Part shown: piece after piece, positions 6,004 to 62,038 of the stretch
Numbering within the stretch: position 1 is the stretch's first letter
Layout of the letters: every line of letters begins with the position of its first letter
Assembly: GCA_963790475.1 (NCBI GenBank)
Contig: CAWBOS010000012.1
Coordinates: forward strand, 928,001-992,000
Length of the DNA stretch: 64,000 nucleotides
Source: an uncultured delta proteobacterium
GTDB lineage: Bacteria; Desulfobacterota; RBG-13-43-22
Reading direction: 5' to 3'
Made by a program: the position numbers and the translations under genes
Notes under the pieces: generated by a model
What the model was told of the DNA's origin: nothing
The model's database searches: none
Seen by the model: the letters and a program-made list of their open reading frames with translations, nothing else

Positions 6004-6092
6004 CGGATTGTTGGTCCAGCTTAGCATCTAAAATAGAAATAGGCCAGCACCGACAAAAATAGGTCAGGCATCTTGCCGGATATGAGGTTTTT

Positions 6093-15833: not shown

Positions 15834-15865
15834 GTACGGCTCAGGATTTCAAATATTTATTAAAT

Positions 15866-16651
15866 TCATTCCAAAGCAATAACCGTGGCAAACCGGCCGG
15901 TGATTTTTTCTTTTCGATACGAGAAAAAATCCTGGGTCCGGCAGGAAGTGCAGATGCCGGCAATCTCGATGTGGTTTTCCAAAACCCCGGCGGCTATCAA
16001 TTGATCACGGCTTAAACGCCGGAGATCAAAATAATAGGGCCGGGCCTGATAGGTCCAATATCTGGCCGGAATTTCTGTTCGATAATTAATGAACTGAGCG
16101 CAACAGGGACCCAGGGAAGGCCCGATCCCGGCCAAAATCTGGGAGGGGACGGTTTTATAAGCTGCCCTCATTCGTTTAACCGCTTCGCCGATGACGTTGT
16201 TTACATTTCCCCGCCAGCCGCAATGGATATTGGCAACGGCGTGGTGGCCGGGATCATAGAGCAGGATGGATTGGCAATCGGCCTGTTTGATCATCAGACC
16301 CTGTTTCGGTACCCGGGTCATCAGAATGTCTCCGGATCTGGATTCAGGAATAGGCTCTGAATCCCGGGATTGTTCTTCTTTAATGATCACCGTTTCTTTA
16401 CCATGCACCTGTTTGAGACAGCGGAGATTAGGTATTCCTAATGACTTAAGCACCAAGGCCCGGTTTTCCACCACGGTTTGTTGGTCATCTCCCACCGAAA
16501 AGCTTAAGTTAAGGCTGGCGTAAGCCCCTCGACTGCCCCCACCATGACGGGCAAAGATCCCGTGAGTCAATCCCGGTATGGATTGAAAAAGCTGGAACTG
16601 ATAGAAGGAAAGACCGTTTAATTTTTTAATAATTAATGATGAAGTTTCCAT
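15866..16651 (-). CDS. pgeF: PgeF/YfiH family purine nucleoside phosphorylase (laccase-like)
   Basis: SLNLSFSVGD, QVHG, ADCQSIL, HCGWRG, IGPSLGPCC, FFSYR. Confidence 0.93.
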   Translation of the reverse strand: METSSLIIKKLNGLSFYQFQLFQSIPGLTHGIFARHGGGSRGAYASLNLSFSVGDDQQTVVENRALVLKSLGIPNLRCLKQVHGKETVIIKEEQSRDSEPIPESRSGDILMTRVPKQGLMIKQADCQSILLYDPGHHAVANIHCGWRGNVNNVIGEAVKRMRAAYKTVPSQILAGIGPSLGPCCAQFINYRTEIPARYWTYQARPYYFDLRRLSRDQLIAAGVLENHIEIAGICTSCRTQDFFSYRKEKITGRFATVIALE

Positions 16652-16799
16652 TCGAAATTATAACTTACGGAAGTTATTCCGGCTATTATCCCCACGGCGC
16701 AAGCGGACTTTCGACGATTTATTCAGTGCCTGTGAACTAAAAATGTTTTAATTTTCAGATTTCGAAAACTGATTTTATTTCGGTTTTGATTTTTGGATT

Positions 16800-42575: not shown

Positions 42576-42738
42576 GTATTCCGGCGGAAGCCGGAATCCA
42601 GAATCTCAACTCCTCTGGACCCCGGCTTCCGCCGGGGTGACAATATAAAAAATAATTCATTTGTGTCATTTCGACCGAAGGGAGAAATATTAGTTTCTTC
42701 CACTTGTATAAGATCACTCCCTCTCGTTCGGGATGACA
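42576..42738. repeat. two adjacent REP-like elements of different families
   Basis: Type A: GTATTCCGGCGGAAGCCGGAATCCAG..CTGGACCCCGGCTTCCGCCGGGGTGAC (42576-42641). Type B: TGTCATTTCGACCGAAGGGAGAAAT..CGTTCGGGATGACA (42664-42738). Confidence 0.8.
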
Positions 42739-42777
42739 AAAGAGATTGGATCATTCATTAAAACCGGGAGAAATATT

Positions 42778-44736
42778 ATGGCTAAGATGCTTTTCGAGCC
42801 TTTAGAAATCGGCAGCATGAAATTGAAAAACAGGATTGGTCTGGCTCCGATGCTCAACATGCCGGATGTCTGGACAACCTTTACCATTACCGACAGGACT
42901 ATAAAGTGGTTTGAGGCCAGGGCCAAAGGGGGCGCCGGACTGATCATGACCGGAACGTTTGTTCTGGATTTACTGGGTGTTCCCGGGGCTCTGGATCAAT
43001 TTAATAAATTGGCCGATACTGTCCATGCCTATGGAGCCAAATTGGGTGTGCAGGTTGGGGCTGGTGGTGTTCTGGGCGGGATAGGACCATCCCCCATGCC
43101 CTATCCGGACAAGCGACATCCCAAACAATCTATCTTTGAATACATGACCGGTGAATTATCTTTCATGCCCGGCATAGAAACAATTGTGGAAATCAGCCAA
43201 GAAGAAATTGAACGTCTGAAAGGGGCTTTCCCGGCGGCGGCCAAGGCTCTTAAGGATGCCGGAGTGGATTGCGTGGAACTCCATTGCGCCCATGGCGGGG
43301 CCACCCTCTACTGTGCCTTCATTTCACCGTTCTACAACCGGCGCCAAGATGAGTACGGCGGGAGCTGGGAAAACAGGCTGCGCTTTCCGGTGGAAACTAT
43401 CAAGGGAATAAGGGCGGCCGTAGGACCGGATTATCCCATCCTGGCCAGGATCGATGCCGATGAGTTGTTGGGCCAAGAAGGGATCACGGTGGAGGATACG
43501 GTTAAGTTCACCGTCCCGGCTCTGGAGGGTGCAGGAGTGAGCTGTTTTGATGTGACCCAGGGATCTATTCTGCATTCCCCTGAAGGCATCACCATACCGC
43601 TTTATTATAAACGCGGATGCTATATTCAACACGCTGAGGCGGTTAAAAAGGCCAGCAAACTGCCGGTCATCGGGGTGGGAAGGATCGTCGATCTGGACAT
43701 GGCCGAAAAGTTTTTACAGGAGGGCAAGGCCGATGTTATCTACCTGGGCCGCCAACTGACTTCGGATCCGGAAACACCCAACAAATATGTCCAGGGCCGG
43801 ACGGATGAAATCAGGAAATGCATCGGCTGTCTTGAGGGTTGTGGGAATCCTTGCCCGGTCAATTATGATATTTTTCCTGATGCCATCCCTTTTATCCCGG
43901 CGGAAAAGAAAAAAAAGATCCTTATCATCGGCGGCGGCGTGGCCGGTATGGAGGCCGCCAGAATATGCGCCCTTCGTGGGCATCAGGTGGTATTGATGGA
44001 AAAGGAGGCTGCTTTGGGAGGGACCGTTGCCGCTCTGGCCCAAGACCCTCTTTCTGCAGAATTTAAAAATTTTGTGGAGTATCTAGGGACCCAGATGAGG
44101 AAGTTAAACATTGATGTGCGGGTCTGCCGGGAAGCCGATGCGTCGATTATTGAAGAAATAAAGCCGGAAGCAATTATCCTGGCAACAGGGGCTTCCTTGA
44201 GAATTCCGGATTTGGCTGAAAATAAACCCGGCGTACTGGACCATGTGGAAGCCCTGAAAAATCGCCCGGCCATAGGGCAGAAAGTGGTGGTCTGGGGATT
44301 GATGTATGGGGCTGAATTTGCCATATCCCTGGCCAGAGAAGGGAAAGAAGTCACCCTGATCGGGGAAGCCGGGGAAGATACCCTGGCCAGCCATGCCTCC
44401 ATGAACCGGAGATGGTGGATCGTCAGAAAGTTAGTTGATATCAGTGTTGTCAGGGCCAGCGCTGAGGCGCAAAAAGTGTCCAATCCCAAGGTGCTCTTCC
44501 ATATTAAAGTGGAGGACATCAACTCTGAAGGAATTGTGGTGACAGACAAGGAAGGGAAACGGAATATTTTACCTTTCGATACCTTGATTATTTCCAGAGG
44601 GCGGAAGAAAAACGACGAACTTTTTACGGAGATCGAACAAAAGGCCCCGGAAGTGTATAAGATCGGCGATTGCTCCGCTGCCGGGAATATTTTGGGGGCC
44701 GTCTGGAGTGCCAACGAGGTGGCGAGAAAAATTTAA
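42778..44736 (+). CDS. old yellow enzyme family flavin/Fe-S oxidoreductase (2,4-dienoyl-CoA reductase/BaiH-like architecture)
   Basis: LKNRIGLAPM, ARAKGGAGLI, NRRQDEYGGSWENRLRF, CIGCLEGC..CPVN, GGGVAGMEAA FAD domain. Confidence 0.92.
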   Translation: MAKMLFEPLEIGSMKLKNRIGLAPMLNMPDVWTTFTITDRTIKWFEARAKGGAGLIMTGTFVLDLLGVPGALDQFNKLADTVHAYGAKLGVQVGAGGVLGGIGPSPMPYPDKRHPKQSIFEYMTGELSFMPGIETIVEISQEEIERLKGAFPAAAKALKDAGVDCVELHCAHGGATLYCAFISPFYNRRQDEYGGSWENRLRFPVETIKGIRAAVGPDYPILARIDADELLGQEGITVEDTVKFTVPALEGAGVSCFDVTQGSILHSPEGITIPLYYKRGCYIQHAEAVKKASKLPVIGVGRIVDLDMAEKFLQEGKADVIYLGRQLTSDPETPNKYVQGRTDEIRKCIGCLEGCGNPCPVNYDIFPDAIPFIPAEKKKKILIIGGGVAGMEAARICALRGHQVVLMEKEAALGGTVAALAQDPLSAEFKNFVEYLGTQMRKLNIDVRVCREADASIIEEIKPEAIILATGASLRIPDLAENKPGVLDHVEALKNRPAIGQKVVVWGLMYGAEFAISLAREGKEVTLIGEAGEDTLASHASMNRRWWIVRKLVDISVVRASAEAQKVSNPKVLFHIKVEDINSEGIVVTDKEGKRNILPFDTLIISRGRKKNDELFTEIEQKAPEVYKIGDCSAAGNILGAVWSANEVARKI

Positions 44737-49305: not shown

Positions 49306-50106
49306 ATGTTTACCTTCAAGCCTGAGTCTTTTTACATGATGCCTTTTCATTTCGGCCCCCGGGCCCAGAAAGGCTCAGCCAAGTATGGTGATGTGACCAC
49401 CATTGCCGTGTCCTATCTGACCGATCGTAAGATGCTTTGTGATTACCTGCCCGAACCTTTTGAAGTAGGGGCGGAACCTCTGGTCTCAGTTTCTTTTTCC
49501 ATGAACCGGGAGGTCGCCTGGCTGGCCGGGGGAAGCTACAATATTATCGGGGTAAATGCTTCGGCCGTTTTCAAAGGTAAAGTCGATCACCTGGCCGGGA
49601 GTTATTGCCTGGTCTTATGGGAAAATCTCACCGATCCTATTCTTACGGGAAGAGAAATTCAGGGGATTCCCAAGATTTATGCTGATATTCCTGATCATAC
49701 CATCCTTGACGGAGTTTGGAGCACCTGTGCCAGCTATCGGGGACATAAGATCGTGGACCTGATGATCAAAGATCTCCAGCCCGTGACAGGTGATCAGTTA
49801 AAAGAAATTGAAAAAATGTCCCGGGATGGAAACTGGATGGGATGGAAATATATCCCCAAAACAGGGGGGCCGGGCGCGGAAGTGAGCCATGCCACCCTTT
49901 TTCCCACCAACCCCGCCTTTGATCTTATCTGGACCGGAAAGGGAGAAGTACAATGGAACCGTTTAACCTGGGAACAGAATCCGACCCAGTTTCATATTGT
50001 CAATGCCCTGGAAAAACTCCCGATCCTTGAATATCGTTCGGCATTGGTGATGAAAGGCAGTTCCGACCTTAGCGTGGCCTCAAAACCGGTAAGACCTCTT
50101 CGCTGA
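49306..50106 (+). CDS. acetoacetate decarboxylase family protein
   Basis: YMMPFHFGP, YLPEPFE, LWENLTDPILTGREIQGIPKIYA with the Schiff-base Lys. Confidence 0.9.
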   Translation: MFTFKPESFYMMPFHFGPRAQKGSAKYGDVTTIAVSYLTDRKMLCDYLPEPFEVGAEPLVSVSFSMNREVAWLAGGSYNIIGVNASAVFKGKVDHLAGSYCLVLWENLTDPILTGREIQGIPKIYADIPDHTILDGVWSTCASYRGHKIVDLMIKDLQPVTGDQLKEIEKMSRDGNWMGWKYIPKTGGPGAEVSHATLFPTNPAFDLIWTGKGEVQWNRLTWEQNPTQFHIVNALEKLPILEYRSALVMKGSSDLSVASKPVRPLR

Positions 50107-50242: not shown

Positions 50243-50326
50243 CCTCAAGTACTCTGGGATATTCCTGACGGGGGAGAATTCAAGGCGGGTTCACTCCTGA
50301 ACTGAAAACCGGTGGAAAGGACAGCT

Positions 50327-51532
50327 ATGGAATTCAAATTTAACCCAAGAGAAGAAGCCTTCTGCCAGGAGGTAGAGTCTTTTTTAAATTCGGCGCTCCC
50401 TCCGGATTGGGCCGAAAAAAATATCAGCTGGCCCGGCGGCTACGCCTCTATTGGCTACAAGGGCGATGACGCCTTAGAGACGATTGCCCGTTACAGAAAG
50501 AAACTGATCGAAAAAGGTTGGAATACCATTTCCTGGCCTAAGGAATATGGGGGCCGTGAGTATTCCTACGTTGAGCAAGCTATTTTCGACGAGCGGACCA
50601 GTTATCATCGTGCTCCCATCTCCGACGTTATTGCCGGAGGCATGGTGGCTCCAACCATCCTCAAAGTCGGAACTGAGGAGCAAAAAAAGAAATGGATACC
50701 CAGGATCGCCTCGGGCGAAATAACTATGTGGTTAGGCTACAGCGAACCTAACGCCGGCTCCGACCTGGCCGGAATTCAAACCACGGCCGCCCTGGACGGC
50801 GACGAATACGTCATCAACGGGCAAAAGGTATGGAGCAGCGGAGCCCACCTGACTGATTACGCCTGGCTGATTGCCCGGACCGATCCCGAGGCCTCCAGGC
50901 ATAAAGGGGTCAGCTTTTTTATCGTCGATAATAAAAGTCCCGGTATCTCCATCCGTCCCTTGGTTAACATTTTAGGCGAGCGTCATTTCAACGAGGTCTT
51001 CTTCGATAATGTTCGTGTTCCCAAAGAAAACCTGGTCGGGCAAAAGAATATGGGTTTTTATCACCTGATGACCGCCCTGGATTTTGAACGGGTCATCCTG
51101 GTCGGTATCGGGGGCTTTAAACGGGTTTTCGAGGAACTGGTGACCTATGTGAAAAAAACCAAAGGGGACGGTGTGCCTTTGAGCAATCACCAGTCGGTGC
51201 GTCTCAAACTGGCCCGTATTGCCACGGAGATCGAGGCCGGATACCTGCTGGTCTGGCGCACGGCCGAAATGCTGGACAAGGGCTTATCTCCCACGGTCGA
51301 ATCCTCGGCCCTGAAACTGGTCGCCACTGAACTCAGCCGGAAGATGGCTGAGGTGGCCATGGACATTTTCGGCCCCTACAGCCTGATAGAAGAGGAGACC
51401 GCCTTCACGCCTTTTCGAGGCCTGGCCCCTCGCGGCTATCTCGACTGCATTTCTGCCACCATCGGGGCAGGGACCTCAGAAATACAGCGAAACATTATAG
51501 CTATCAGAGGCCTGGGTCTTCCCAGATCCTAA
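50327..51532 (+). CDS. acyl-CoA dehydrogenase, catalytic subunit of a FadE26/FadE29-like heteromeric pair
   Basis: SWPKEYGG, GYSEPNAGSDLA, NGQKVWSS, FNEVFFDNV, ALDFER, GAGTSEIQRNIIA.RGLGLP. Confidence 0.93.
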   Translation: MEFKFNPREEAFCQEVESFLNSALPPDWAEKNISWPGGYASIGYKGDDALETIARYRKKLIEKGWNTISWPKEYGGREYSYVEQAIFDERTSYHRAPISDVIAGGMVAPTILKVGTEEQKKKWIPRIASGEITMWLGYSEPNAGSDLAGIQTTAALDGDEYVINGQKVWSSGAHLTDYAWLIARTDPEASRHKGVSFFIVDNKSPGISIRPLVNILGERHFNEVFFDNVRVPKENLVGQKNMGFYHLMTALDFERVILVGIGGFKRVFEELVTYVKKTKGDGVPLSNHQSVRLKLARIATEIEAGYLLVWRTAEMLDKGLSPTVESSALKLVATELSRKMAEVAMDIFGPYSLIEEETAFTPFRGLAPRGYLDCISATIGAGTSEIQRNIIAIRGLGLPRS

Positions 51533-51560: not shown

Positions 51561-52694
51561 ATGAACCTGGATTTTTCAGAAGATCAAAGAATCCTCAGGA
51601 AGGCGGCCAAGGATTTTTTTGTCAGGGAGTGTCCTCAACTGTTGATCCGGAGCATGAGAGAGCATGAGACCGGGCACGACGCCATACTCTGGGGGAAGAT
51701 GGCTGATCTGGGCTGGTTGGGAGTGATCGTACCCGAGGAATACGGCGGAACCGGTGGAACCTTCCTGGACCTGGCCGTCATTCTCGAGGCCATGGGCGAG
51801 GTCTGCTTACCGGGACCGTTTTTCTCAACAGCCGTACTCGGGGCGAATGCCATACTTCTGGCCGGGACCGAAGAACAGAAAAAAATCCTCCTTCCCCAAA
51901 TAGCCGAAGGCAGGCTGTTGCTGGCCCTGGCCCTGAACGATCCGGGAAATTGGGCAGGAGTCGAAAATAACAACACCCTTGCCAAAATAGACGGGTCGGG
52001 GTACATACTTGAAGGGATAAAACATTTTGTAGAAAACGCCCAGGTCGCGGACAAGATCATTTGCGCGGCCCAGGTGACAGACACGAGCGGCCGCCAGGAG
52101 GGAATGACCTTATTTGTGGTGGATGGGGACAGCCCGGGGATCGAGATCAGGCCCTTTCGAACGCTGGCTTACGAACGGCATTGTCAGGTGGTCTTCCAGG
52201 ACCTCCACTTAGATGAAAAGGCCATGTTAGGAGCGGCGGGTAAGGCCGGTCCGGCCCTCGAAACCCTTCTGCAAAGGGCTGCCGTAGCCAAATGTGCTGA
52301 GATGCTCGGTGCGGCCCAGGTGTCTCTCGACCTCACCCTGGCCTACGCCAAGGAGCGGGTACAGTTCGGCCGGCCCATAGGCAGTTTTCAGGCGGTTCAG
52401 CATCATCTGGCTAACATGGCCGTGGATGTCGACAGTATGAGGGATCTGACCTATCAGGCGGCCTGGAGAATATCCGAGGGATTACCCGCCGGCACCGAAG
52501 CGGCCATGGCTAAGGCCTTTTGCAGTGAGGCCGCGGCCAGGGTGACCCGTTTCAGCCATCAGGTACACGGGGCCATCGCCTTCTGCGATGAACACAATTT
52601 GCATTTCTACTATCGCAAGGTCAAGGCCGCGGGTCTGACTTTCGGGGACAGCGAATACCATCTGGAAAAAGTGGCTCGATCTTTAGGGTTGTGA
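51561..52694 (+). CDS. acyl-CoA dehydrogenase, short partner subunit (FadE27/FadE28-like)
   Basis: LGWLG..PEEYGG, PGPF, RVQFGRPIGSFQAVQH, HQVHGAI, truncated C-terminus FGDSEYH. Confidence 0.92.
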   Translation: MNLDFSEDQRILRKAAKDFFVRECPQLLIRSMREHETGHDAILWGKMADLGWLGVIVPEEYGGTGGTFLDLAVILEAMGEVCLPGPFFSTAVLGANAILLAGTEEQKKILLPQIAEGRLLLALALNDPGNWAGVENNNTLAKIDGSGYILEGIKHFVENAQVADKIICAAQVTDTSGRQEGMTLFVVDGDSPGIEIRPFRTLAYERHCQVVFQDLHLDEKAMLGAAGKAGPALETLLQRAAVAKCAEMLGAAQVSLDLTLAYAKERVQFGRPIGSFQAVQHHLANMAVDVDSMRDLTYQAAWRISEGLPAGTEAAMAKAFCSEAAARVTRFSHQVHGAIAFCDEHNLHFYYRKVKAAGLTFGDSEYHLEKVARSLGL

Positions 52695-52699
52695 ATAAA

Positions 52700-52796
52700 A
52701 GGTTCAAGGTTTAAAATTCAAAGTTTGGAGTTTAAAGTTCAAGGTTTGTAATTTGAAGTTTTAAATTTGCACTTTGCAATTTGAGATTTGACTTTT
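52700..52796. repeat. degenerate heptamer tandem repeats
   Basis: aggttca aggttta aaattca aagtttg gagttta aagttca aggttt ... aatttgc actttgc aatttga gatttga. Confidence 0.65.
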
Positions 52797-52867
52797 GGTT
52801 TACGTCATTTATTGAATCCTGGGAATCCTTTTCTCTAATTAAATTTATTATTTTAGGAGAAGGTTTA

Positions 52868-54022
52868 ATGGCCAAACGGACCCTGAGGACAAAACTGTGT
52901 GATTTGCTGAACATCGACTACCCGATCATCAGCGCCGGCATGGGGCCCAGTCTGGTGGGTGAAAAAACGGGCGCACCGAAAGAACTGGTGGTGGCGGTCT
53001 CTGAAGCCGGAGGGCTCGGCGTCCTGGGTGCGGCCGGATACACGGTGGAGGAACTGCGCCAGGAGGTTCGGGAGATCAAGAAAATGACCGATAAACCTTT
53101 CGGTGTGGACCTGCTGCTCCCCAGCCAGACGGTCAGCATGGGTGACCAGGAACTCCAGGGACCTTCTGAAGTTGCCTTAAGCGAGGTGATCAAAAACCTG
53201 CCCCAGGCCCACTATGAATGGATCATGAAGGTCAAAGAGGAAATGGGGCTCCCGGATATCGAGGCCAAAGTCCTGTCAGGATCTACCACCTCACGTCCCC
53301 ATGCCTCCATCAAGGTATGCATCGAAGAAGGTGTTCCCTTATTTTGCTCAGGCCTTGGAAATCCGGGTTTCATGGTTAAAGAAGCTCACGCGGCCGGAAT
53401 GAAGGTGCTGGGGATATCCGGGAATACCAAAAACGCCAGAAGGATTGCCCAGGGCGGGGCGGACCTGGTCGTGGCTCAAGGGCATGAGGGCGGCGGCCAC
53501 ACCGGGCGCATTGGCTCTATCGCTTTATGGCCTCAGGCGATTGACGCCTGTTCACCGACGCCGGTCCTGGCTGCCGGAGGCATCGGCGACGGCCGGGGAG
53601 TGGCTGCGGCCCTGGCTGTGGGCTGTGTCGGCGTCTGGGTGGGCACACGTTTCCTGGCCTCGGTTGAAGGAGGGGCCTTGCCCATACAGAAAGAAACCAT
53701 TCTCGAAGCTACGGATGAGGACACCAGGAGGTCCTATCTGTATACCGGTAAAACCTCCCGAACCATTTCTAACCGTTTTCATGATTTGTGGGAGAATTCA
53801 GGTTTGGAGCCTTTGCCCTTTCCTATCCAGGTCATTTTTGCCTCAGCCTTGGCCGAGATGTTCAACAAGGCGGAGATGAAGGAATATATGGGACCATTTT
53901 CCGGTCAGATCGCCGGGTTGATCACCGAGATTAAACCGGCGGCCCGGATAGTAGAAGAAATGGTAGAAGAAGCGGTTGATATCTTAACCAGGAGGCTGCC
54001 GGGATTTGTTATTGCAGAGTAG
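52868..54022 (+). CDS. nitronate monooxygenase family flavoprotein (FabK/IpdC-like enoyl-thioester reductase)
   Basis: YPIISAGMG, AVSEAGGLG, KPFGVDLL, AQGHEGGGHTG, LAAGGIGDGRG, GVWVGTRF. Confidence 0.9.
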   Translation: MAKRTLRTKLCDLLNIDYPIISAGMGPSLVGEKTGAPKELVVAVSEAGGLGVLGAAGYTVEELRQEVREIKKMTDKPFGVDLLLPSQTVSMGDQELQGPSEVALSEVIKNLPQAHYEWIMKVKEEMGLPDIEAKVLSGSTTSRPHASIKVCIEEGVPLFCSGLGNPGFMVKEAHAAGMKVLGISGNTKNARRIAQGGADLVVAQGHEGGGHTGRIGSIALWPQAIDACSPTPVLAAGGIGDGRGVAAALAVGCVGVWVGTRFLASVEGGALPIQKETILEATDEDTRRSYLYTGKTSRTISNRFHDLWENSGLEPLPFPIQVIFASALAEMFNKAEMKEYMGPFSGQIAGLITEIKPAARIVEEMVEEAVDILTRRLPGFVIAE

Positions 54023-54103: not shown

Positions 54104-54358
54104 ATGAGTGAACACGGGAAAAGAGTTGAAGTGAGGGCCCAGATGTCCGGGGTTTTCTATAGAAAATCCGGGCCGACGGAGCCTCCCTATGTCGAAGTGG
54201 GCGACCAGGTCAAGAAGAAACAGATCCTGGCCCTTTTGGAGACTATGAAGGTTTTTCAGAAGGTCAAATCCCCAGTCGAGGGGACAATCCTCGAGATTGT
54301 TGCTGAAAACGAGAAACCCCTGAAGGATGATGATCTGATGTTTGTGATCGAGGCATAA
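54104..54358 (+). CDS. stand-alone biotin carboxyl carrier protein
   Basis: GVFYR..P..PPYVEVGD and the ETMKV biotinylation motif; 84 aa; AGGAGG RBS. Confidence 0.93.
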   Translation: MSEHGKRVEVRAQMSGVFYRKSGPTEPPYVEVGDQVKKKQILALLETMKVFQKVKSPVEGTILEIVAENEKPLKDDDLMFVIEA

Positions 54359-54382
54359 CGAAAATAAAGATTCATGCTACAA

Positions 54383-54450
54383 GGCCTGCGGGCAGGCAGG
54401 AGGTGTACGGTCTACGGTTTTACCTTAAACCTCCTGCCTGCCCGCAGGCC
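54383..54450. repeat. perfect 22-bp inverted repeat within a heptamer-repeat spacer
   Basis: GGCCTGCGGGCAGGCAGGAGGT (54383-54404) / ACCTCCTGCCTGCCCGCAGGCC (54429-54450). Confidence 0.85.
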
Positions 54451-54528
54451 CTGAACCTTTGATTTTGAACCTATTTCCTTAACTGTGGCGCCCCACGGGG
54501 GCATTAGCTTAACAAGGAGAAAACGGAC

Positions 54529-56079
54529 ATGGGCGAGTGGATGGACAGCTACCTCAAAAGGCTTGTTAAAAACAGGGAAGAAAACCAAACCGGCGGAGGG
54601 AAAGAGCGCATCGAGGTCCAGCACGGCCTGGGCAAGCTCACGGCCCGTGAAAGGATCGAGCGGCTGGTGGATCCGGGTAGTTTTGAGGAATTCGGTTCAC
54701 TGGTCAGGGACCCTTACACCCGGTTTGCCAAGATTCCAAAGCCCAGCCCTTCTGACGGGGTGGTCATGGGCATGGCCAAAATAAAAAACCGGCCGGTCAT
54801 GATCTACTCCCTGGATTTTACGGTCATGTCCGGTTCGATCGGGGATCAGGGAGTCTGGAAGATCGCTGAACTGGTCCAGATGGCCGGACAGGAACAGACC
54901 CCCCTTATTGGTCTGATCGATTCGGCCGGTTCGAGGCTGACCTTCAAGGGCGGTTTCGCCGGGCTGTTTGGTTTGGGACGACTGCTCAGAAATTACTGTT
55001 TATATTCCGGGGTGATTCCTCAGATCACCCTGGTCCTGGGGCCCTGCACCGGGCCGATGGCCAAGGTAGCGGCTCTGTCCGACTTCCTGATCATGAACCG
55101 GAAGACGGGCTTTTTGTGGCTGGGAGGGGAGATCGAATCAGAAGATGCCGGCTCGGCAGAGTTTCACATGACCCGATCGGGCCAGTGCGACCTTATAGCC
55201 GACAGCGATGAAGAAGCCCTTGGTATGGTCGAACAGCTTTTGGATTTCATCCCTCAGAATTGCTGGGGCAAACCCGCCGCTGTCCAATCCACCGACGATC
55301 CGCAGAGGGTGGAGGAAGGGCTCCTGGAAGTGATGCCGAACAACCCCAAGTTTACCTACGATATGCACGAGGTCATCAACCTGATTACGGACCAGGGGGA
55401 ATTCTTTGAATTGAAAGATGGTTTCGCGCCCAACCTGATCATCGGTTTCGCCCGCTTCGACGGTATGGTCACCGGGATTGCCGCCAGTAATCCGGACGAA
55501 CTGAGTGGCATCATGGAACCCGATTCCTCCGATAAATATGACAAGTTCATGATGTTCCTGGACGCCTTTAACATCCCGCTTCTGACCATCTCCGACACCA
55601 CGGCCTACCCGCCCGGAGACAAATGGGAAAGGAAGGGCGTCATCCGGCACGGGGCTAAAAACCTGCACGGGTACAGCCATCTGACCAACCCCAAGGTCAC
55701 CCTGGTTTTGAGGCGGTCTTACGGCGGGTCGAATATCACCATGGGCTGCAGCAAAATGGGACCGGATTTCATCTTCGGCTGGCCGACCGTGGAGTTCGCC
55801 CCCACCGGACCTGAGTCCATCGTCCAGGCCGTCTTTCACAAAGAGCTGGCCAAGGCCAAGGAAGAGGGGAATTACGAGGAGGTTTACAACTCGTTGCTTA
55901 TACCGCTCAAAGAACAATTCAGCGTCATAAATATGGCCCGGGCCTTTACGACCTACTATACGGTCCATGAAGTGATTGATCCCAGGGAAACCCGTATCCA
56001 TATCATCAGGGCGCTTCATGCCTCGGAGGGAAAGATTGAGGAACTGCCGGACAAGAAACGATATATCAAGCCTGCTTAG
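54529..56079 (+). CDS. acyl-CoA carboxylase carboxyltransferase subunit (paralog A)
   Basis: GKLTARERI..LVDPGSF, DFTVMSGS, SGVIPQI, DAFNIPL, RRSYGGS, VIDPRETR. Confidence 0.95.
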   Translation: MGEWMDSYLKRLVKNREENQTGGGKERIEVQHGLGKLTARERIERLVDPGSFEEFGSLVRDPYTRFAKIPKPSPSDGVVMGMAKIKNRPVMIYSLDFTVMSGSIGDQGVWKIAELVQMAGQEQTPLIGLIDSAGSRLTFKGGFAGLFGLGRLLRNYCLYSGVIPQITLVLGPCTGPMAKVAALSDFLIMNRKTGFLWLGGEIESEDAGSAEFHMTRSGQCDLIADSDEEALGMVEQLLDFIPQNCWGKPAAVQSTDDPQRVEEGLLEVMPNNPKFTYDMHEVINLITDQGEFFELKDGFAPNLIIGFARFDGMVTGIAASNPDELSGIMEPDSSDKYDKFMMFLDAFNIPLLTISDTTAYPPGDKWERKGVIRHGAKNLHGYSHLTNPKVTLVLRRSYGGSNITMGCSKMGPDFIFGWPTVEFAPTGPESIVQAVFHKELAKAKEEGNYEEVYNSLLIPLKEQFSVINMARAFTTYYTVHEVIDPRETRIHIIRALHASEGKIEELPDKKRYIKPA

Positions 56080-56100
56080 CGCTGTCGAAGGGAGACTGAC

Positions 56101-57657
56101 ATGGGAAAACGTATGGAAGAGGCTATTAAACGCTATGAGGATATTCAACAGCAAAACCTTTTGGGCGGCGGCATCAAGGATATCGAACGGCAGCACGCCA
56201 GGGGCAAACTCACCGCCAGGGAACGCATCGATCTGTTTATCGACCCCGGTACCTTCAGCGAACTGGGGTCCAGCGTGGGCACGACGGGTATGCGCATGGA
56301 CGGCCGCATCCCCGTGGCCCCTTGTGACGGTGCCATAGTCGGAACGGCCAAAGTGCATGGCCGGCCGACCATGATCTATGCCTCCGATTTCACGGTGCTG
56401 GGAGGATCGACCGCGGCCCAGCACCTGATGAAATATGCTGAGACCCTGATCATGGCCGCCAATTGGGGCATCCCCCTGGTCAACCTGCTGGATTCTTCAG
56501 GCGGACGGCTCGGATATTCGGATGTCACCGGCGCCGGTATAGATTGGCATTTTCGACTCGAATCCCTGTATTCCGGTGTGATTCCCCAAATCACGGTCTT
56601 GATGGGACCTTGTATCGCCGGCGGGGCTTATTTGCCCACTCTGTGTGACTTCCTGCTCATGAGCCGGATCTCAGCCAATATGTGGCTCGGCGGCCCGAGA
56701 CAGACCGAGGCAGCCACATCGGAAAAATTCGACCGGAACGTGGGCGGCGCGGATTATCACATGCAGCTCAGCGGATCGGCCGACACGGTGGGGAAGGATG
56801 ACGCGGAAACTATCGCCCAGTGCCGAGAGCTGATCCGTTACCTGCCCCAGAACTTCAGGGAAAAGGCACCTGACTGGGAAAGAAAAGATGATCCGGGCAG
56901 GGAGGTCAAGGCCCTGGAAGAACTCATCCCTGACGATTTTGAGCAAACCTACGATATGCACGAGGTCATTAAGATACTGGTCGATGACAGAGATTTTTTC
57001 GAGATCAAGGACGAGTACGCTAAAAACCTGATCACCTGTTTCTGCAGGTTCCATGGGGAGGTGGTCGGGCTGGTAGCCAACAATCCGAGTCACCCCGGCA
57101 GCATTCTGGAAGTGAACGCTTGTGATAAATATTACCGTTTTCTGCAAGTTCTGGATGCTTACAACATCCCCCTGATCAACCTGGTGGACACTCCCCCTTT
57201 GGTGCCGGGAGAGTCGGAGGAGACCAGGGGTCTGCTGAGACATATCGGAAAAATCGTGGATGTTTATACCACCGCTACCGTGCCCAAAATAAGCGTCGTC
57301 CTGCGGGAAGCTTATGCCGACACGGGGAGTATGATTATGGGGGTCCCCAAGAGCATGGGTGCCGATCTGGTCTATGCCTGGCCTCTCACCCGGTTTGCCG
57401 TGGAAGCCTCTGAAATAGACTATCGCCGGGTTTACGGTAAAGGAATCGAGGAGGATGCCTATGAGGCTTATTTGAACCGTTCGCGGGAAAAGGTCGAGGC
57501 CTTCGAAGCCGGCCTGACCTGGACCGCCCAGGTGGTTGATGAGATCATTAGGCCCAAAGACACACGGAGGAAAATCATCGAGGCTTTGGAAGTCACCCGG
57601 AACAGACGCGAAAAACTTCCGCGGCGAGCCAAAATGCACACCTCGCCTCCGACGTAA
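56101..57657 (+). CDS. acyl-CoA carboxylase carboxyltransferase subunit (paralog B)
   Basis: GKLTARERI, DFTVLGGS, DSSGGR, GPCIAGGAY, DAYNIPL, DEIIRPKDTR. Confidence 0.95.
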   Translation: MGKRMEEAIKRYEDIQQQNLLGGGIKDIERQHARGKLTARERIDLFIDPGTFSELGSSVGTTGMRMDGRIPVAPCDGAIVGTAKVHGRPTMIYASDFTVLGGSTAAQHLMKYAETLIMAANWGIPLVNLLDSSGGRLGYSDVTGAGIDWHFRLESLYSGVIPQITVLMGPCIAGGAYLPTLCDFLLMSRISANMWLGGPRQTEAATSEKFDRNVGGADYHMQLSGSADTVGKDDAETIAQCRELIRYLPQNFREKAPDWERKDDPGREVKALEELIPDDFEQTYDMHEVIKILVDDRDFFEIKDEYAKNLITCFCRFHGEVVGLVANNPSHPGSILEVNACDKYYRFLQVLDAYNIPLINLVDTPPLVPGESEETRGLLRHIGKIVDVYTTATVPKISVVLREAYADTGSMIMGVPKSMGADLVYAWPLTRFAVEASEIDYRRVYGKGIEEDAYEAYLNRSREKVEAFEAGLTWTAQVVDEIIRPKDTRRKIIEALEVTRNRREKLPRRAKMHTSPPT

Positions 57658-57660
57658 GCA

Positions 57661-57749
57661 AACAGGCTATAGGCGATAGGCAATGGGCAATAGGTGACGA
57701 CTTCTATGTATTGGTTTTCCCTATCGCCTATAGCCCCTTGTCCATAGCC
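57661..57749. repeat. inverted heptamer tandem repeat (AGGC(T/G/A)AT)n/(CCTAT(C/A)G)n
   Basis: aacaggctat aggcgat aggcaat gggcaat agg ... cctatcg cctatag cc. The same leading motif occurs at 35157 and 41179. Confidence 0.75.
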
Positions 57750-57786
57750 AAATTCTTATTTTCGAACTTATTTAGGGAGGATCATT

Positions 57787-58659
57787 ATGAGTGACAAAGC
57801 CATCATTTCCTGTGCCTTGACCGGTGTTCTGACCAATCCGGCCGTTTTCGACGTTCCGGTGACACCTGAGCAGATGGCCGACGCCGCCGAACAGGCCTGG
57901 AACGAGGGTGCGGTCATTGTCCACTGCCATTTCCGGGATCAGCGGGAGGGGATGGGGTTTCTGCCCACCTGGGACGTGGGGTGGGTCAGTGCCATTATTT
58001 CCGCCATCAAGGAGCGGATACCGGGCATGATTATCAACCAGAGTACGGGCGTCAACGGACCGGATATCTCCGGTCCGGTCGCCTGTCTCGAAGCCCTCAA
58101 ACCCGAAATGGCCGCCTGCAATGCCGGGACACTCAACTACCTCAAACTCAAGAGCGAAGGGACCTGGGCCTGGCCGCCCATGATTTTCGACAACCCGGTG
58201 GAAAAGGTTCAGCGGTTTCTCGAGGTCATGAATGCTAACACCATCATCCCCGAGTTCGAGTGTTTTGATACCGGTATCGTCAGGAGCGTGGCCATGTACA
58301 AAAAGGCCGGCCTGTTCGAGGGAGACCCGCACATTTCGCTGGTTATGGGCGTGGCCAGCGGCCAGGCCGCCAGGCCTGAGTGGTTGCCCCTGCTCAAGGA
58401 CGAGATGCTCCCCGGAACACACTGGCAGGTGATCGCCATAGGCCGGGAAGAGGTTTGGCCCCTGCATCGTCGGGCCCTGGAACTGGGAGGAAATGTTCGA
58501 ACCGGTCTGGAAGACACTTTTTATCTGCCCGATGGACGGAAGGCCAGGAACAACGGAGACCTAGTCAAAGCCCTGGCCGACATGGTGCGGGAGGTGGGCC
58601 GGGATATCGCCGGGGCCGAGGAGGCTCGTCGAATCCTGGGTATCAAGAACAGGACCTGA
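57787..58659 (+). CDS. beta-keto acid cleavage enzyme (Kce/DUF849 family)
   Basis: AIISCALTG, PVTPEQ, GAVIVHCHFRD (HxH metal motif), NQSTG, PEFECFD, GGNVRTGLED. Confidence 0.93.
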   Translation: MSDKAIISCALTGVLTNPAVFDVPVTPEQMADAAEQAWNEGAVIVHCHFRDQREGMGFLPTWDVGWVSAIISAIKERIPGMIINQSTGVNGPDISGPVACLEALKPEMAACNAGTLNYLKLKSEGTWAWPPMIFDNPVEKVQRFLEVMNANTIIPEFECFDTGIVRSVAMYKKAGLFEGDPHISLVMGVASGQAARPEWLPLLKDEMLPGTHWQVIAIGREEVWPLHRRALELGGNVRTGLEDTFYLPDGRKARNNGDLVKALADMVREVGRDIAGAEEARRILGIKNRT

Positions 58660-58733
58660 TAGCTTGGAAAAGGGCAGGGTGAAGCACAGAGGCCTTCCTG
58701 ATTTTATGGCCAGTAAGGAGGGGGGGGATTCCG

Positions 58734-59525
58734 GTGAAAAAGATCTGTAAAGACCTGGAGGATGAATACGAGGCCCTGGATGCCATTGTATCGGGACTGG
58801 ATGAGGCAGGCTGGGAAACCAAAACTTCTTTTTTTGAATGGACGGTGAAAGACGAGATCGCCCATATTGCCTTCTTCGACGGCACGGCGAGATTGTCGAC
58901 CACCGATCCTGAGGCATTCAATGAACATGTCAAAGCCCTTTTCGGCGGCAAGGTCGAAGCTTTCGACCAGCTGAACACCTTGAAGAAAATGGCCTATCCC
59001 GATCTGCTCCAATACTGGCGCGAAGAAAGGACCGCCCTGGTCAACGCCCTGTCGCGCCTGGGTCAGAAGGACCGGCTGCCCTGGTACGGGCCGTCCATGT
59101 CCGCCGTATCCTTTGCCACCGCCCGCCTGATGGAAGCGTGGGCCCACGGTCAGGATGTGGCGGACGCCCTTGGTGTAAGCCGGCCGGCCACGGACCGACT
59201 CTATCACATCGCCCACCTCGGTAATATCACCTATAGCTGGAGCTTCACCAATCGTCAGATGGAGGCCCCCCGGGTCCCGGTCCGTGTCGAACTTACCAGC
59301 CCTTCCGGTGAGCTGTGGATCCGGGGACCCGAAGAAGCGCGGGACATTATCCGGGGCAGCGTGTTAGGTTTCTGTCTTGTGGTGACCCAACGCCGGCACT
59401 TCGCGGATACCGACTTGGTCATAACCGGGGATGCTGCGGAAAAATGGATGTCCGTGGCTCAATGCTTTGCCGGTCCTCCGGAGACGGGACCGGAACCCGG
59501 GAAATTTCCCAAAATGGGCGCCTGA
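58734..59525 (+). CDS. TIGR03084-like metal-binding protein (MDMPI/DinB-like superfamily)
   Basis: WTVKDEIAH, PWYGPSMS..SFATARLMEAWAHGQD, FCLVVTQRRH, AQCFAGPP. Confidence 0.88.
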   Translation: MKKICKDLEDEYEALDAIVSGLDEAGWETKTSFFEWTVKDEIAHIAFFDGTARLSTTDPEAFNEHVKALFGGKVEAFDQLNTLKKMAYPDLLQYWREERTALVNALSRLGQKDRLPWYGPSMSAVSFATARLMEAWAHGQDVADALGVSRPATDRLYHIAHLGNITYSWSFTNRQMEAPRVPVRVELTSPSGELWIRGPEEARDIIRGSVLGFCLVVTQRRHFADTDLVITGDAAEKWMSVAQCFAGPPETGPEPGKFPKMGA

Positions 59526-59584
59526 ACCACATTATTTTAGCAGGAAGCACTATGGCGTAAATATTTTGCTCCTATGCCTTCAAA

Positions 59585-59680
59585 CGTCATTCCGGCAGGT
59601 TTTAAGCCGGAATCCAGTGACTTTGATTTCCTATTTCTTTGAAAAACCCGGATTCCCGATAAAGACATTCGGGAATGACG
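59585..59680. repeat. REP-like inverted pair
   Basis: CGTCATTCCGGCAGGTTTTAAGCCGGAATCCAG ... CCGGATTCCCGATAAAGACATTCGGGAATGACG. Confidence 0.75.
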
Positions 59681-59713
59681 AAAAAAGTGTTGCTATAGTA
59701 ATAAGGAAATTTC

Positions 59714-61081
59714 ATGTTTAAAAAAATCCTAGTGGCCAACAGGGGAGAGATCGCCCTCAGGGTCATCCGCGCCTGCAAGGAGCTGGGCATTTCCTGCGTC
59801 GCCGTGTACTCGGAGGCCGACGCCTCGTCCCTCCATACCCGGTTGGCCGATGAGCGGGTATTGATCGGACCTCCCCAAAACGCCAAGAGCTATCTGAGCA
59901 TTGAAAACATTCTGGCTGCGGCCAGGGAAACGGGCGCGGACGCCATCCATCCCGGCTATGGCTACCTGGCCGAAAACGAGGAATTCGCTCTGGCCTGTGA
60001 AGCCCAGGGCCTTGTATTTATCGGGCCGACCCCCGAAAACCTGCGAATGGCCGGGGATAAGATCGCCGGGAAATTAATTATGCGCCAGGCAGGTGTGCCG
60101 GTCATTCCCGGCGGTGACGGCTTGGTGAAAAATATCGATGAAGCGCTTCGTATCAGCCTGGAAGTGGGATACCCGGTGGTGATCAAGGCGGCCGGGGGAG
60201 GTGGAGGACGGGGGATTCGCATTTGCGCCACGGAAGAGACTCTGGCCGAAGAATTCCCGGTGGCCGGGATGGAAGCAGGGGCCGCTTTTGGAAACAAGGG
60301 GCTATACATCGAAAAATTCATCGTCCAGCCCCGGCATATTGAGTTCCAGATCTTGGCCGATTCCTTCGGAAACATCTGTCATCTCGGTGAGCGCGAATGC
60401 AGCATTCAACGCCGCTTTCAGAAACTCATCGAGGAATCCCCTTCGCCCAGACTGACTTCGAAACTCCGGAAGGTTATGGGTGAAGCGGCCATAACCGCGG
60501 CCAGGGCCATCAACTATGTCAACGCCGGGACCGTGGAGTTCCTGGTGGACCATGAGGACCACTTTTATTTCATGGAAATCAACGCCCGTATTCAGGTCGA
60601 GCATCCGGTGACCGAACTGACCACCGGCATCGATCTGGTCAAGGAGCAAATAAGAATCGCTTCCGGTGAGCGGCTGGATTATTCCTTTGAGGATCTCAAC
60701 CTCAGGGGCTGGGCCATCGAGTGCCGGATCAATGCCGAGGACCCGGACCGGGGTTTCCTGCCTTCTCCGGGCACAGTCGAACGATACCAACCTCCTGGAG
60801 GATACGGGGTCCGTCTGGATACCCATCTTTACCAGGGCTATGAGCTGCCTATCTATTACGATTCGCTGATTGCCAAACTCGTTACCTTTGATGCCACCAG
60901 GAGCGGTGCGATTCAGGTGATGAAAAGGGCCCTGGAGGAGTTCAAGATCGAACCGCTTAAGACCACAATCCCCCTTTACCGTCGAATCATGGAGGACGCT
61001 GATTTCCAGCGAGGTGAATTCACCACCGATTATATCAAAAAGTTCGTTCCTGATAATGAGGATGATGAGGATGAGGACTAA
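59714..61081 (+). CDS. accC: biotin carboxylase
   Basis: KKILVANRGEIALR, IHPGYGYLAEN, KAAGGGGGRG, RECSIQRR, EINARIQVEHPVTE, RINAED, YDSLIAKL. Confidence 0.96.
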   Translation: MFKKILVANRGEIALRVIRACKELGISCVAVYSEADASSLHTRLADERVLIGPPQNAKSYLSIENILAAARETGADAIHPGYGYLAENEEFALACEAQGLVFIGPTPENLRMAGDKIAGKLIMRQAGVPVIPGGDGLVKNIDEALRISLEVGYPVVIKAAGGGGGRGIRICATEETLAEEFPVAGMEAGAAFGNKGLYIEKFIVQPRHIEFQILADSFGNICHLGERECSIQRRFQKLIEESPSPRLTSKLRKVMGEAAITAARAINYVNAGTVEFLVDHEDHFYFMEINARIQVEHPVTELTTGIDLVKEQIRIASGERLDYSFEDLNLRGWAIECRINAEDPDRGFLPSPGTVERYQPPGGYGVRLDTHLYQGYELPIYYDSLIAKLVTFDATRSGAIQVMKRALEEFKIEPLKTTIPLYRRIMEDADFQRGEFTTDYIKKFVPDNEDDEDED

Positions 61082-61174: not shown

Positions 61175-61249
61175 TAAGCTTGAGTCACAACTCTAAGCCC
61201 ATGAAACCTCGAAACCTTGAACCTACTTTTAAACTTATGGAGAAAAGTT

Positions 61250-62038
61250 ATGGCTGAGACTAAGGAAGTCTTATATGAAGTCAAGGACCGCATTGCCACT
61301 ATCACCCTCAACCGGCCCGATAAGCGTAATTCGATCAACGCCGGTATCACAGTCGGCGTGACCTTGGGTCTTGATCAAGCCGACCAGGACCCTGCTGTGT
61401 CGGCCGTCATCCTGAACGGAGCCGGCGGTCATTTCTGCTCCGGGGCCGATCTCGGCGGAGGCGGCTTTTCAGGCCAGCAATCCTTCCTGGAAGTGCACGA
61501 GGGCCGGGGGCAATTCACTCAATTGCTTCTGAAAATGAACCAGTGCCGAAAGCCCATTCTGGCCGCTGTCGAGGGCTATTGCCTGGCCGGTGGTATGGGC
61601 CTGTGCCTGTCGAGCGATATCGTTATCGCCAGCGAAGACGCCCAATTCGGCACTCCTGAAATCAAGCGCGGCCTGTGGCCCTACATGGTCACCGCGGTCT
61701 TGATTCGTAATCTGGGCCGAAAAAAAGCCTTAGAGCTGTGTATGACGGGGGATAGAATACCTGCGGCGGAGGCCGAACGTATCGGTATGATCAATTATGT
61801 CGTTCCTAAGGCCGAATTCAAGGACAGAGTAGGCCAAATGGCCAAAAAACTGGCCTCCTTCAGCCCCGCGGTTATGGGACTGGGCAAACGGTCTTTTTAC
61901 CAGATGGCCGACATGACCGTCGAAGATGCCTTGGAATATTTGAAATGCCAGCTCACCATCAATGCTCAAACCGAGGATATCATGGAAGGGGTGCGCGCTT
62001 TTCTGGAAAAACGGGATCCCCAGTGGAAGGGGAGGTAA
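61250..62038 (+). CDS. enoyl-CoA hydratase/isomerase (single-Glu type, LiuC/AtuE-like pattern)
   Basis: ITLNRPDKRNS, FCSGADL, LAGGMGL (first Glu absent), FGTPE, EGVRAFLEKR. Confidence 0.92.
   Translation: MAETKEVLYEVKDRIATITLNRPDKRNSINAGITVGVTLGLDQADQDPAVSAVILNGAGGHFCSGADLGGGGFSGQQSFLEVHEGRGQFTQLLLKMNQCRKPILAAVEGYCLAGGMGLCLSSDIVIASEDAQFGTPEIKRGLWPYMVTAVLIRNLGRKKALELCMTGDRIPAAEAERIGMINYVVPKAEFKDRVGQMAKKLASFSPAVMGLGKRSFYQMADMTVEDALEYLKCQLTINAQTEDIMEGVRAFLEKRDPQWKGR

Follow-up and report, generated by a model that had tools for sequence, protein, structure and literature searches.

The window analysed here is a 64,000-nucleotide stretch from an uncultured delta proteobacterium (assembly GCA_963790475.1, contig CAWBOS010000012.1, positions 928,001 to 992,000), and its subject is a gene cluster at window positions 54104-61081 that contains two adjacent, full-length carboxyltransferase (CT) genes, here called CT-A and CT-B. 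Each chain keeps the canonical oxyanion hole of one domain and carries an altered motif in the other, and the retained holes are complementary. The carboxyltransferase is probably an obligate A/B heteromer with one canonical site per dimer, in which B's N domain is combined with A's C domain, and served by the biotin carboxyl carrier protein (BCCP) and biotin carboxylase (BC) of the same operon. Biotin-dependent carboxylases are a textbook family whose CT cores have been described as homo-oligomers, with one recent exception, a hetero-hexamer of homodimers. A catalytic site assembled only across two paralogs, with a pseudo-site left over, would if confirmed be a new architecture for the class, and nature's own clear-cut case of a duplication after which the copies lost complementary functions. 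The scale is considerable, as 182 relatives were recovered in a genome scan, from Desulfobacterota and several other phyla.

Complementary motifs in CT-A and CT-B

Six open reading frames (ORFs) lie across 54104-61081, all present as the first-pass annotation of this DNA had described them. Coordinates in the lists are window positions, and all listed genes are on the + strand. The four parts of the putative carboxylase are as follows:

54104-54358, + strand: minimal BCCP, 84 aa (Pfam Biotin_lipoyl 8e-17; E-T-M-K in the sequence)
54529-56079, + strand: CT-A, 516 aa, altered N domain and canonical C domain (Pfam Carboxyl_trans 1.8e-112; PDB 1vrg 8.2e-122)
56101-57657, + strand: CT-B, 518 aa, intact N domain with a motif like that of methylcrotonyl-CoA carboxylase (MCC), remodelled C domain (Carboxyl_trans 4.6e-106; 1vrg 6.6e-104)
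59714-61081, + strand: stand-alone BC, 455 aa, without a BCCP or BT domain (accC equivalog, 678.7 bits against a cutoff of 626.5)

The Carboxyl_trans (PF01039) matches of CT-A and CT-B both span nearly the full profile, and the two chains share 39% identity. The minimal carrier and separate biotin carboxylase that had been proposed are both borne out by the profile matches above; the M-K within the E-T-M-K of the carrier is presumably the biotinylation site.

According to a recent preprint, CT sites are made jointly by the N and C domains of neighbouring protomers, with hole 1 of the N domain stabilizing the substrate enolate and hole 2 of the C domain stabilizing carboxybiotin (bioRxiv 10.64898/2026.02.06.704326). 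CT-A and CT-B were aligned pairwise to the solved beta subunits 1vrg, 1x0u, 1on3, and 7w5u, which are of the propionyl-CoA carboxylase/methylmalonyl-CoA decarboxylase (PCC/MMD) type. The four motifs at the hole positions, all of which had been placed exactly to the base in the first-pass annotation, are listed below:

55039-55065, + strand: CT-A N motif GPCTGPMAK, G171-K179, at the hole 1 position; opposite GPCAGGAVY of 1vrg, with G-P replacing G-G
55711-55731, + strand: CT-A C motif RRSYGGS, R395-S401, at the hole 2 position, canonical; opposite RKAYGGA of 1vrg
56605-56631, + strand: CT-B N motif GPCIAGGAY, G169-Y177, at the hole 1 position, intact; ungapped alignment to the solved CTs
57304-57327, + strand: CT-B C motif REAYADTG, R402-G409, the hole 2 loop with a 2-residue insertion; gap opposite in 1x0u, 1on3, 1vrg, and 7w5u

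In the alignment, the N motif of CT-A is followed by a 10-residue deletion opposite the conserved 'ITGPNVIKAVTGE' stretch of 1vrg. In CT-B, the hole 2 loop reads Y-A-D-T-G-S against Y-G-(2-residue gap)-G-A, identically in all four pairwise alignments. The N motif of CT-B, CIAGGAYLP...LGGP, has a form like that of MCC and geranyl-CoA carboxylase (GCC), CxAGGAYxP...LGGP, and is nearest to CTAGGAYVP of 9tps_A, rather than having the PCC form. CT-A is without a canonical hole 1 (G-P, the deletion, and an S-G substitution in a further motif described below), and CT-B is without a canonical hole 2 (the inserted loop). Neither chain carries both glycine-based oxyanion holes; a complete set is found only across the A/B pair.

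Four separate polypeptides encoded by the cluster (BC, the 84-aa BCCP, CT-A, and CT-B) would make up an acyl-CoA carboxylase dependent on ATP and biotin, and its CT component would most likely be an A3B3 hexamer of three A/B dimers. At the canonical site, the N domain of B would give the acyl-CoA side with hole 1 and the C domain of A the carboxybiotin side with hole 2. At the opposite, pseudo-symmetric site, formed by the N domain of A and the C domain of B, the canonical features would be gone on both sides, and no ordinary carboxyl transfer would be expected.

Conservation, linkage, and origin of the gene pair

The closest homologues of A (121) and B (120) were drawn from a collection of 5.8 billion proteins. 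G-P is present in at least 114 of the 121 A homologues and RRSYGG[SA]N in all of them; among the B homologues, 118 of 120 carry GPCIAGGAY and 117 of 120 the C-motif pattern, and every listed variant of the latter reads Y-x-D-x-G. A scan of GTDB representative genomes yielded the 182 relatives, 80 of which are covered by the locus and pair counts given here, with 71 complete A/B pairs. In these pairs A has G-P in 66, G-L in 4, and G-T in 1, together with YGG[SAG]N in 71 of 71, and B has the N motif GPCIAG[GQSA]AY in 71 of 71 and the C loop Y[AGS]D[AST]G in 69 of 71. The further motif, DFTV.GGS, behaves similarly: S-G stands for G-G in A in 66 of 72 pairs, and G-G is kept in B in all 72 and in 26 of 27 canonical sequences. 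The reciprocal motif pattern is conserved, beyond chance, and is not drift; the first-pass annotation had proposed looking for it in homologous gene pairs, and it is found there (71 pairs; 20 loci). That annotation had also called the altered motifs degenerate. Their departure from the canonical form is real; since the A N and B C motifs are themselves strongly conserved, however, "altered" is a better word for them than "decayed".

A deeper A/B subclade, at 63-66% identity, was observed at four loci (L054-L057, in genomes G195 and G142 and as second copies in G199 and G258). Its A proteins have G-L or G-V, and its B proteins have GPCIAGQAY and glycine-richer C loops (e.g., YGDGGG). Both G199 and G258, genomes of the window's own genus, hold both A/B subclades.

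The same asymmetry was seen in individual glycines when 21 A and 18 B sequences were compared with 27 canonical PCC/MMD-type sequences from the same phylum. The canonical-invariant glycines lost in A alone (G101, G123, G176, and G209) all lie in the N domain, with none in the C domain, and those lost in B alone comprise G327, G375, G399, G427, and G470 in the C domain and G128 and G175 in the N domain. Identity to the canonical enzymes is 0.389 for the N domain of A, 0.429 for its C domain, 0.393 for the N domain of B, and 0.359 for its C domain. Within the family, the N domain of A is the fastest-evolving of the four domains (conservation 0.70, against 0.83 for the C domain of A), and the canonical enzymes show no such gap (0.725 vs. 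0.711).

CT-B lies directly downstream of CT-A in 74 of 80 loci, and in the remaining six the contig stops at A or shortly beyond it; adjacency is strict in 74 of the 74 loci having downstream sequence. The spacing is usually 14-400 nt. At one locus (L169, G225:C17, about 5009-6178), A ends ~1.1 kb before B starts, and B sits in an open frame of 700 aa. Among 301 genomes sampled evenly from the phylum, the search recovered A in 23 and B in 24, which makes 25 genomes with at least one of the two; every one of these holds both genes, with B split into two ORFs in one and A cut by a contig end in two. A split CT-B was observed in a same-genus genome (L040 3720-5275, G229:C117) as two overlapping ORFs of 291 and 278 aa, which may reflect either a frameshift or an assembly error. 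Across genomes, the pairwise identities of A and those of B correlate at 0.85. In one metatranscriptome run, a contig from a relative (251 nt, 18 differences, ~93% identical to the window) spans the stop of A and the start of B, and another, ~99% identical, lies inside B. The junction contig gives a weak hint of co-transcription, weak because the run consists of contigs and may include carried-over DNA. Parts of the window without RNA coverage are uninformative, and runs with a small share were kept out of any statement on habitat.

A maximum-likelihood tree was built from 55 sequences, none of them MCC; in it, clade A and clade B each have a support of 1.0 and the joint A+B clade one of 0.996, and the latter is sister to the canonical PCC/MMD clade. 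As A and B form sister clades beside the canonical one, the pair arose by duplication of a PCC-type gene. The PCC/MMD beta-type CTs (1vrg, 1x0u, 1on3, and 1xny) also resemble A and B in Pfam domain and length and are their best PDB matches, and in both groups each site is expected where the N domain of one chain meets the C domain of the other chain in the dimer. The PCC/MMD enzymes are, however, homohexamers with both holes in each chain, whereas A has just the hole of the C domain and B just that of the N domain.

The pair occurs mostly in Desulfobacterota, including Desulfosarcinaceae, Desulfobacteraceae, Desulfarculaceae, Smithellaceae, Desulfatibacillum alkenivorans DSM 16219, and an Olavius symbiont. 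Metagenome-assembled genomes labelled Pseudomonadales, Anaerolineaceae, Dehalococcoidia, Holophagae, Poribacteria, and Bacillota carry it as well. Since one of the carriers, D. alkenivorans DSM 16219, is a named strain, which we take to be in culture, the A/B model is directly testable.

The predicted A/B dimer and alternative readings

A complex of A residues 10-508 and B residues 10-508 was predicted in three runs, alongside three controls. The A/B dimer reached an ipSAE of 0.74, against 0.00 for the best control (n=3), a result that may show likeness only and not the binding of this particular pair, because homodimers of the family have been solved. Among solved complexes 58 of 80 reach the mark of 0.74, and among mismatched pairs 2 of 110 do. 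The A/B runs share at least 97% of contacts, with a partner pLDDT of at least 82. At the predicted interface, T-G-P of A (174-176) faces A-D of B (406-407), and G-G of A (399-400) faces A-G of B (173-174); the intact halves are thus predicted to meet in one site and the altered halves in the other. Conservation in an active site normally exceeds that of its domain. The mean column conservation of the two sites over 72 pairs, with interface residues taken from the predicted model, is as follows:

Site 1 (intact), C domain of A: interface 0.94, domain background 0.87
Site 1 (intact), N domain of B: interface 0.89, domain background 0.81
Site 2 (altered), N domain of A: interface 0.80, domain background 0.78
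Site 2 (altered), C domain of B: interface 0.80, domain background 0.83

Residues 399-400 of A and D407 of B are invariant. On the basis of the model, site 1 alone appears to show the above-domain conservation expected of an active site.

The state of site 2 is where a second reading enters, in which the heteromer forms and the site joining the N domain of A to the C domain of B has been repurposed, as a second catalytic site, a ligand-binding or regulatory acyl-CoA site, a site for a crotonase-type reaction on the carboxylated product, or a docking place for BCCP or BC. Strong purifying selection acts on the altered motifs, and B has, in its C domain, polar residues without a canonical counterpart that are invariant or nearly so (D407 1.00, E435 1.00, D440 1.00, and Y441 0.83-0.99). 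That domain evolves no faster than the N domain of B (0.75 vs. 0.74), and CT domains have the crotonase fold, as stated in the accessible preprint text (bioRxiv 10.64898/2026.02.06.704326). These conserved residues may, however, just maintain the fold and the interface. The site 2 interface residues are no more conserved than their domain background, unlike those of the canonical site, and the N domain of A is the fastest-evolving of the four. A repurposed site is considered improbable. Because the C domain of B is as conserved as its N domain, its description as "drifting" or "degenerate" was dropped.

Altered motifs could also belong to working sites. Oxyanion holes use backbone NH groups, so changes of side chain need not kill a site. 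CT-A and CT-B might then form separate homohexamers, or one hexamer of A/A and B/B dimers, sharing BC and BCCP and each acting on a different acyl-CoA through a non-canonical but working site. The long-chain acyl-CoA carboxylase of mycobacteria (LCC) has this logic: in the accessible part of its description, two paralogous full-length CTs share BC and BCCP, an AccD4 homodimer is combined with two AccD5 homodimers, the six sites lie at the AccD4/AccD4 and AccD5/AccD5 interfaces with both holes intact, all six are considered active, and AccE5 organizes the complex (bioRxiv 10.64898/2026.02.06.704326). According to the same text, AccD4 carries G-A at hole 1. The strong conservation of both altered motifs, the existence of A variants with G-L, G-V, or G-T, and the many CT paralogs of the host genome that deviate at both motifs are likewise compatible with functional homodimers.

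Several observations nonetheless make independent homodimers unlikely. Proline offers no backbone NH. In an A/A homodimer, every site would join G-P, S-G, and the 10-residue deletion to an intact biotin half, and in a B/B homodimer every site would join an intact acyl-CoA half to the Y-A-D-T-G-S loop and the lost glycines. The losses in A and B are complementary rather than parallel, the asymmetry in conservation tracks the geometry of a heterodimer, and none of the 25 genomes holds one gene without the other. A and B also differ from the LCC itself, since they show reciprocal retention with a mixed site expected, and the intact holes of both LCC paralogs have no equivalent here. The adjacent, co-occurring paralogs and the predicted dimer would fit two paralogs sharing one complex, as in the LCC. 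No AccE-like neighbour was seen by Pfam among the annotated neighbours, no search aimed at AccE having been made.

Two other arrangements of known carboxylases were compared with the pair. AccA and AccD are single-domain, half-size proteins. AccA/AccD (alpha2beta2) resembles the proposed A/B in that two polypeptides make up the site, with the acyl-CoA half coming from one and the biotin half from the other. Pfam ACCA matches the C domain of both A and B, and NCBIfam accD matches the N domain of A. In contrast to AccA/AccD, both A and B are full-length two-domain chains, and a pseudo-site would remain in A/B because each partner retains its second, altered domain. Mycobacterial AccD1/AccD2 was rejected as a precedent, as the accessible text describes separate AccD1-AccA1 and AccD2-AccA2 complexes and no mixed CT. 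The first-pass annotation had known of no described carboxylase with such reciprocal degeneration; likewise, a literature search that yielded only LCC and AccA/AccD-type papers and left subscription journals largely outside turned up no account of full-length CT paralogs that retain half-sites reciprocally.

The obligate A/B heteromer with one live site had been proposed at the outset, and it is supported by every computational test applied: reciprocal motifs, adjacency, co-occurrence, sister origin, glycine losses, and the asymmetry between the sites. The presence of one BCCP and one BC in the cluster, and of two BC genes in the whole genome, also agrees with it. From these patterns we infer the biochemistry, namely heteromer formation, its stoichiometry, and the inactivity of either homomer. 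A number of points weigh against the proposal. Beyond the backbone argument and the G-A of AccD4 given above, proline is not universal in A: G-L or G-V replaces G-P in 4 of 20 loci, at 63-66% identity, and these Leu/Val orthologues, like those with Leu or Thr in 5 of 71 pairs, retain a backbone NH at the Pro position. Most of the host's other 13 CT paralogs are non-glycine at these positions; because deviation is so common in the CT family, motif deviation alone is no proof of inactivity. When the 188 canonical-invariant columns are counted together, the reciprocity of loss is only mild, with 45 columns of 103 lost in A and 42 in B for the N domain, and 32 of 85 in A and 40 in B for the C domain. 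This mild asymmetry rules out a global decay of the A N and B C domains, and the reciprocity appears to sit in the glycines and active-site loops, not in bulk divergence. The C domain of B is as conserved within the family as its N domain, which would suit a site that is constrained or repurposed better than one that is dead. The lists of interface residues derive from the predicted model rather than from a structure. The genes of the presumed partners are also not always close: among 30 loci with full flanks, A/B has no BCCP nearby in 7 and no BC nearby in 11. Finally, the PCC-type grouping of A+B, by tree and by PDB E-values, does not sit easily with an MCC-like gamma-carboxylation.

Catabolic context and the CT repertoire of the host genome

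The remaining genes of the cluster and its surroundings are mainly those of CoA-ester catabolism, including acyl-CoA dehydrogenases (ACADs) and an enoyl-CoA hydratase (ECH):

35783-38185, + strand: 800-aa protein whose sole Pfam match is DUF362
42733-44736, + strand: fusion of an old yellow enzyme (OYE) domain and a pyridine-nucleotide-disulphide oxidoreductase, 667 aa, of the 2,4-dienoyl-CoA-reductase or enoate-reductase type
49306-50106, + strand: acetoacetate-decarboxylase-family protein (PF06314 1.2e-33), just upstream of the ACAD pair
50312-51532, + strand: ACAD, PimC-like large subunit, probably of a heteromeric ACAD (Pfam Acyl-CoA_dh N/M/C; TIGR03204 4.7e-68, below cutoff)
51561-52694, + strand: ACAD, PimD/IpdE2-like small subunit (Pfam ACAD domains; TIGR03203 6.1e-53 and IpdE2 5.3e-44, both below cutoff)
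52781-54022, + strand: NMO/FabK-like FMN oxidoreductase, possibly an enoyl-CoA reductase (Pfam NMO 1.4e-59)
57787-58659, + strand: BKACE (PF05853) protein, 290 aa (Pfam BKACE 4.3e-81)
58734-59525, + strand: TIGR03084 family DinB-like metal-binding protein, 263 aa (318 bits against a cutoff of 247.95)
61217-62038, + strand: enoyl-CoA hydratase/isomerase family protein (Pfam ECH_1 6.3e-59)

The PimC/PimD-like ACAD pair and the NMO/FabK-like flavoprotein lie directly upstream of the cluster, and two ECH family genes lie downstream. The BKACE match is full-length, and the protein aligns to Kce (2y7d, 6.2e-37); the vHcH/iHlH and RtGlED/RcGfED stretches line up, and their H-x-H and E-D residues are presumably the zinc ligands. 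Further upstream are an SCP-x-type thiolase, an acyl-CoA ligase, another hydratase, an OYE/FadH-like reductase, another ACAD, and a solute-binding protein. The region as a whole, including the DUF362 and OYE-fusion genes, has the look of an island for the catabolism of CoA-activated acids.

In the 30 full-flank loci, the genes found within about 9 kb of A/B were BCCP in 23, BKACE in 21, BC in 19, ECH in 13 (at least 50% identity), the first ACAD in 7 (at least 43%), the second in 6, and NMO in 5 (at least 60%). TIGR03084 was found in 8 only, and this DinB-like gene is accessory, outside the core. The module also occurs in another arrangement, ECH-ACAD-ACAD-TetR-A-B-BCCP-BC-ECH-BKACE-NMO, at one locus (L112, with NMO at 15681-16664). 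Judged from its gene neighbourhoods, A/B appears to belong to a conserved ACAD-ECH-BKACE catabolic module.

These neighbourhoods bear on a further reading of the pair, as an ATP-independent acyl-CoA:acyl-CoA transcarboxylase or decarboxylase, for example in anaerobic alkane degradation, with the nearby BC unrelated or auxiliary. One site would take CO2 from an alkylmalonyl-CoA and the other would hand it to a second acyl-CoA. Such a role would suit the presence of A/B in alkane-degrading lineages (Desulfatibacillum alkenivorans, Smithellaceae, and Desulfosarcinaceae), the loci without BC or BCCP within 9 kb, and the host genome's far larger number of CT than BC genes. It would, however, need two complete sites, each with both holes, and one complete set is found per A/B pair; moreover, BCCP and BC, where present, are mostly in the same operon as A/B. 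A transcarboxylase is for these reasons very improbable.

For the heteromeric carboxylase, a role in a Liu/Atu-like route for branched or unsaturated acyl-CoAs is put forward tentatively. BKACE enzymes convert a beta-keto acid and acetyl-CoA to an acyl-CoA and acetoacetate. In the proposed route, ACAD would yield an enoyl-CoA, the carboxylase would add CO2, ECH would hydrate and perhaps cleave the product, and BKACE would turn the resulting beta-keto acid and acetyl-CoA into acyl-CoA and acetoacetate. The proposal is based on the gene set, the MCC/GCC-like N motif of B, the lack of an HMG-CoA lyase above cutoff, and the alignment of BKACE to Kce. By analogy, dehydrogenase, carboxylase, and hydratase would follow the logic of leucine and acyclic-terpene catabolism. 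The neighbouring acetoacetate-decarboxylase-family gene is notable in this respect because acetoacetate is the expected BKACE product; the gene is not a conserved neighbour at other A/B loci.

The MCC/GCC pathways (Liu/Atu) share with the A/B context an acyl-CoA dehydrogenase, a biotin carboxylase, and an enoyl-CoA hydratase, as well as the form of the B N motif. They have an HMG-CoA lyase where the A/B cluster has BKACE, and A and B match their CTs far less well: the matches to 3u9r (4.9e-44 for A, 1e-48 for B) and 5ikl (8.3e-47 for A, 9.1e-53 for B) fall short of those to PCC-type chains by 50-70 orders of magnitude, and the tree was built without MCC sequences. By these matches A and B appear PCC-type overall, which counts against the proposed route. 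A classification of B as an MCC-type chain was rejected, as its N motif alone is MCC-like and its C-domain segment best matches PCC/MMD chains. The canonical leucine pathway was also rejected. In the host genome, no HMG-CoA lyase (NF004283) scored above cutoff (best 52 bits against 246, at C10:459517-460347). Desulfococcus multivorans is reported to use Mcc and HmgL for isovalerate (PMC5109826). The same text, as far as accessible, is silent on whether Mcc of D. multivorans has two CT genes (PMC5109826). In the accessible text of the NetSyn BKACE preprint, no mention of carboxylase, carboxyl, or biotin was found, and a search for literature joining BKACE, carboxylase, and sulfate-reducing found none.

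A more speculative extension, which seems a long shot, is that A/B is a bifunctional machine, in which the site of A-N and B-C, freed by duplication, has acquired a new catalytic or sensing role on a pathway intermediate. Together with BKACE and ECH, it might form an unrecognized route in anaerobes, independent of HMG-CoA lyase, for taking beta-branches off isoprenoid-like or alicyclic acyl-CoAs. This idea draws on B residues D407, E435, D440, and Y441, taken as invariant, and on the remodelled G-P loop of A. In any case, A/B marks an uncharacterized catabolic module (ACAD, ECH, BKACE, and NMO) in sediment anaerobes, and the current annotation of these genes as "propionyl-CoA carboxylase" is probably misleading for carbon-cycle models.

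The host genome (G000) holds 15 full-length Carboxyl_trans genes, against two BC genes and one BCCP, that of this cluster, when BC and BCCP genes are counted with the cluster's own proteins as queries; the cluster itself has one of each. Fully canonical motifs are found in 2 of the 15 CT genes (C10:991580-993040 and C6:752747-754201). The rest have other residues at both oxyanion-hole positions and no obvious BC partner. The same genome also holds a second divergent CT pair (L171 5279-10082; G000:C10:1771278-1776081, minus strand), whose members fall in two different tree clades and flank an AMP-dependent acyl-CoA ligase. With no BC or BCCP in the 15 kb examined, this pair may represent another heteromeric or a biotin-independent CT system.

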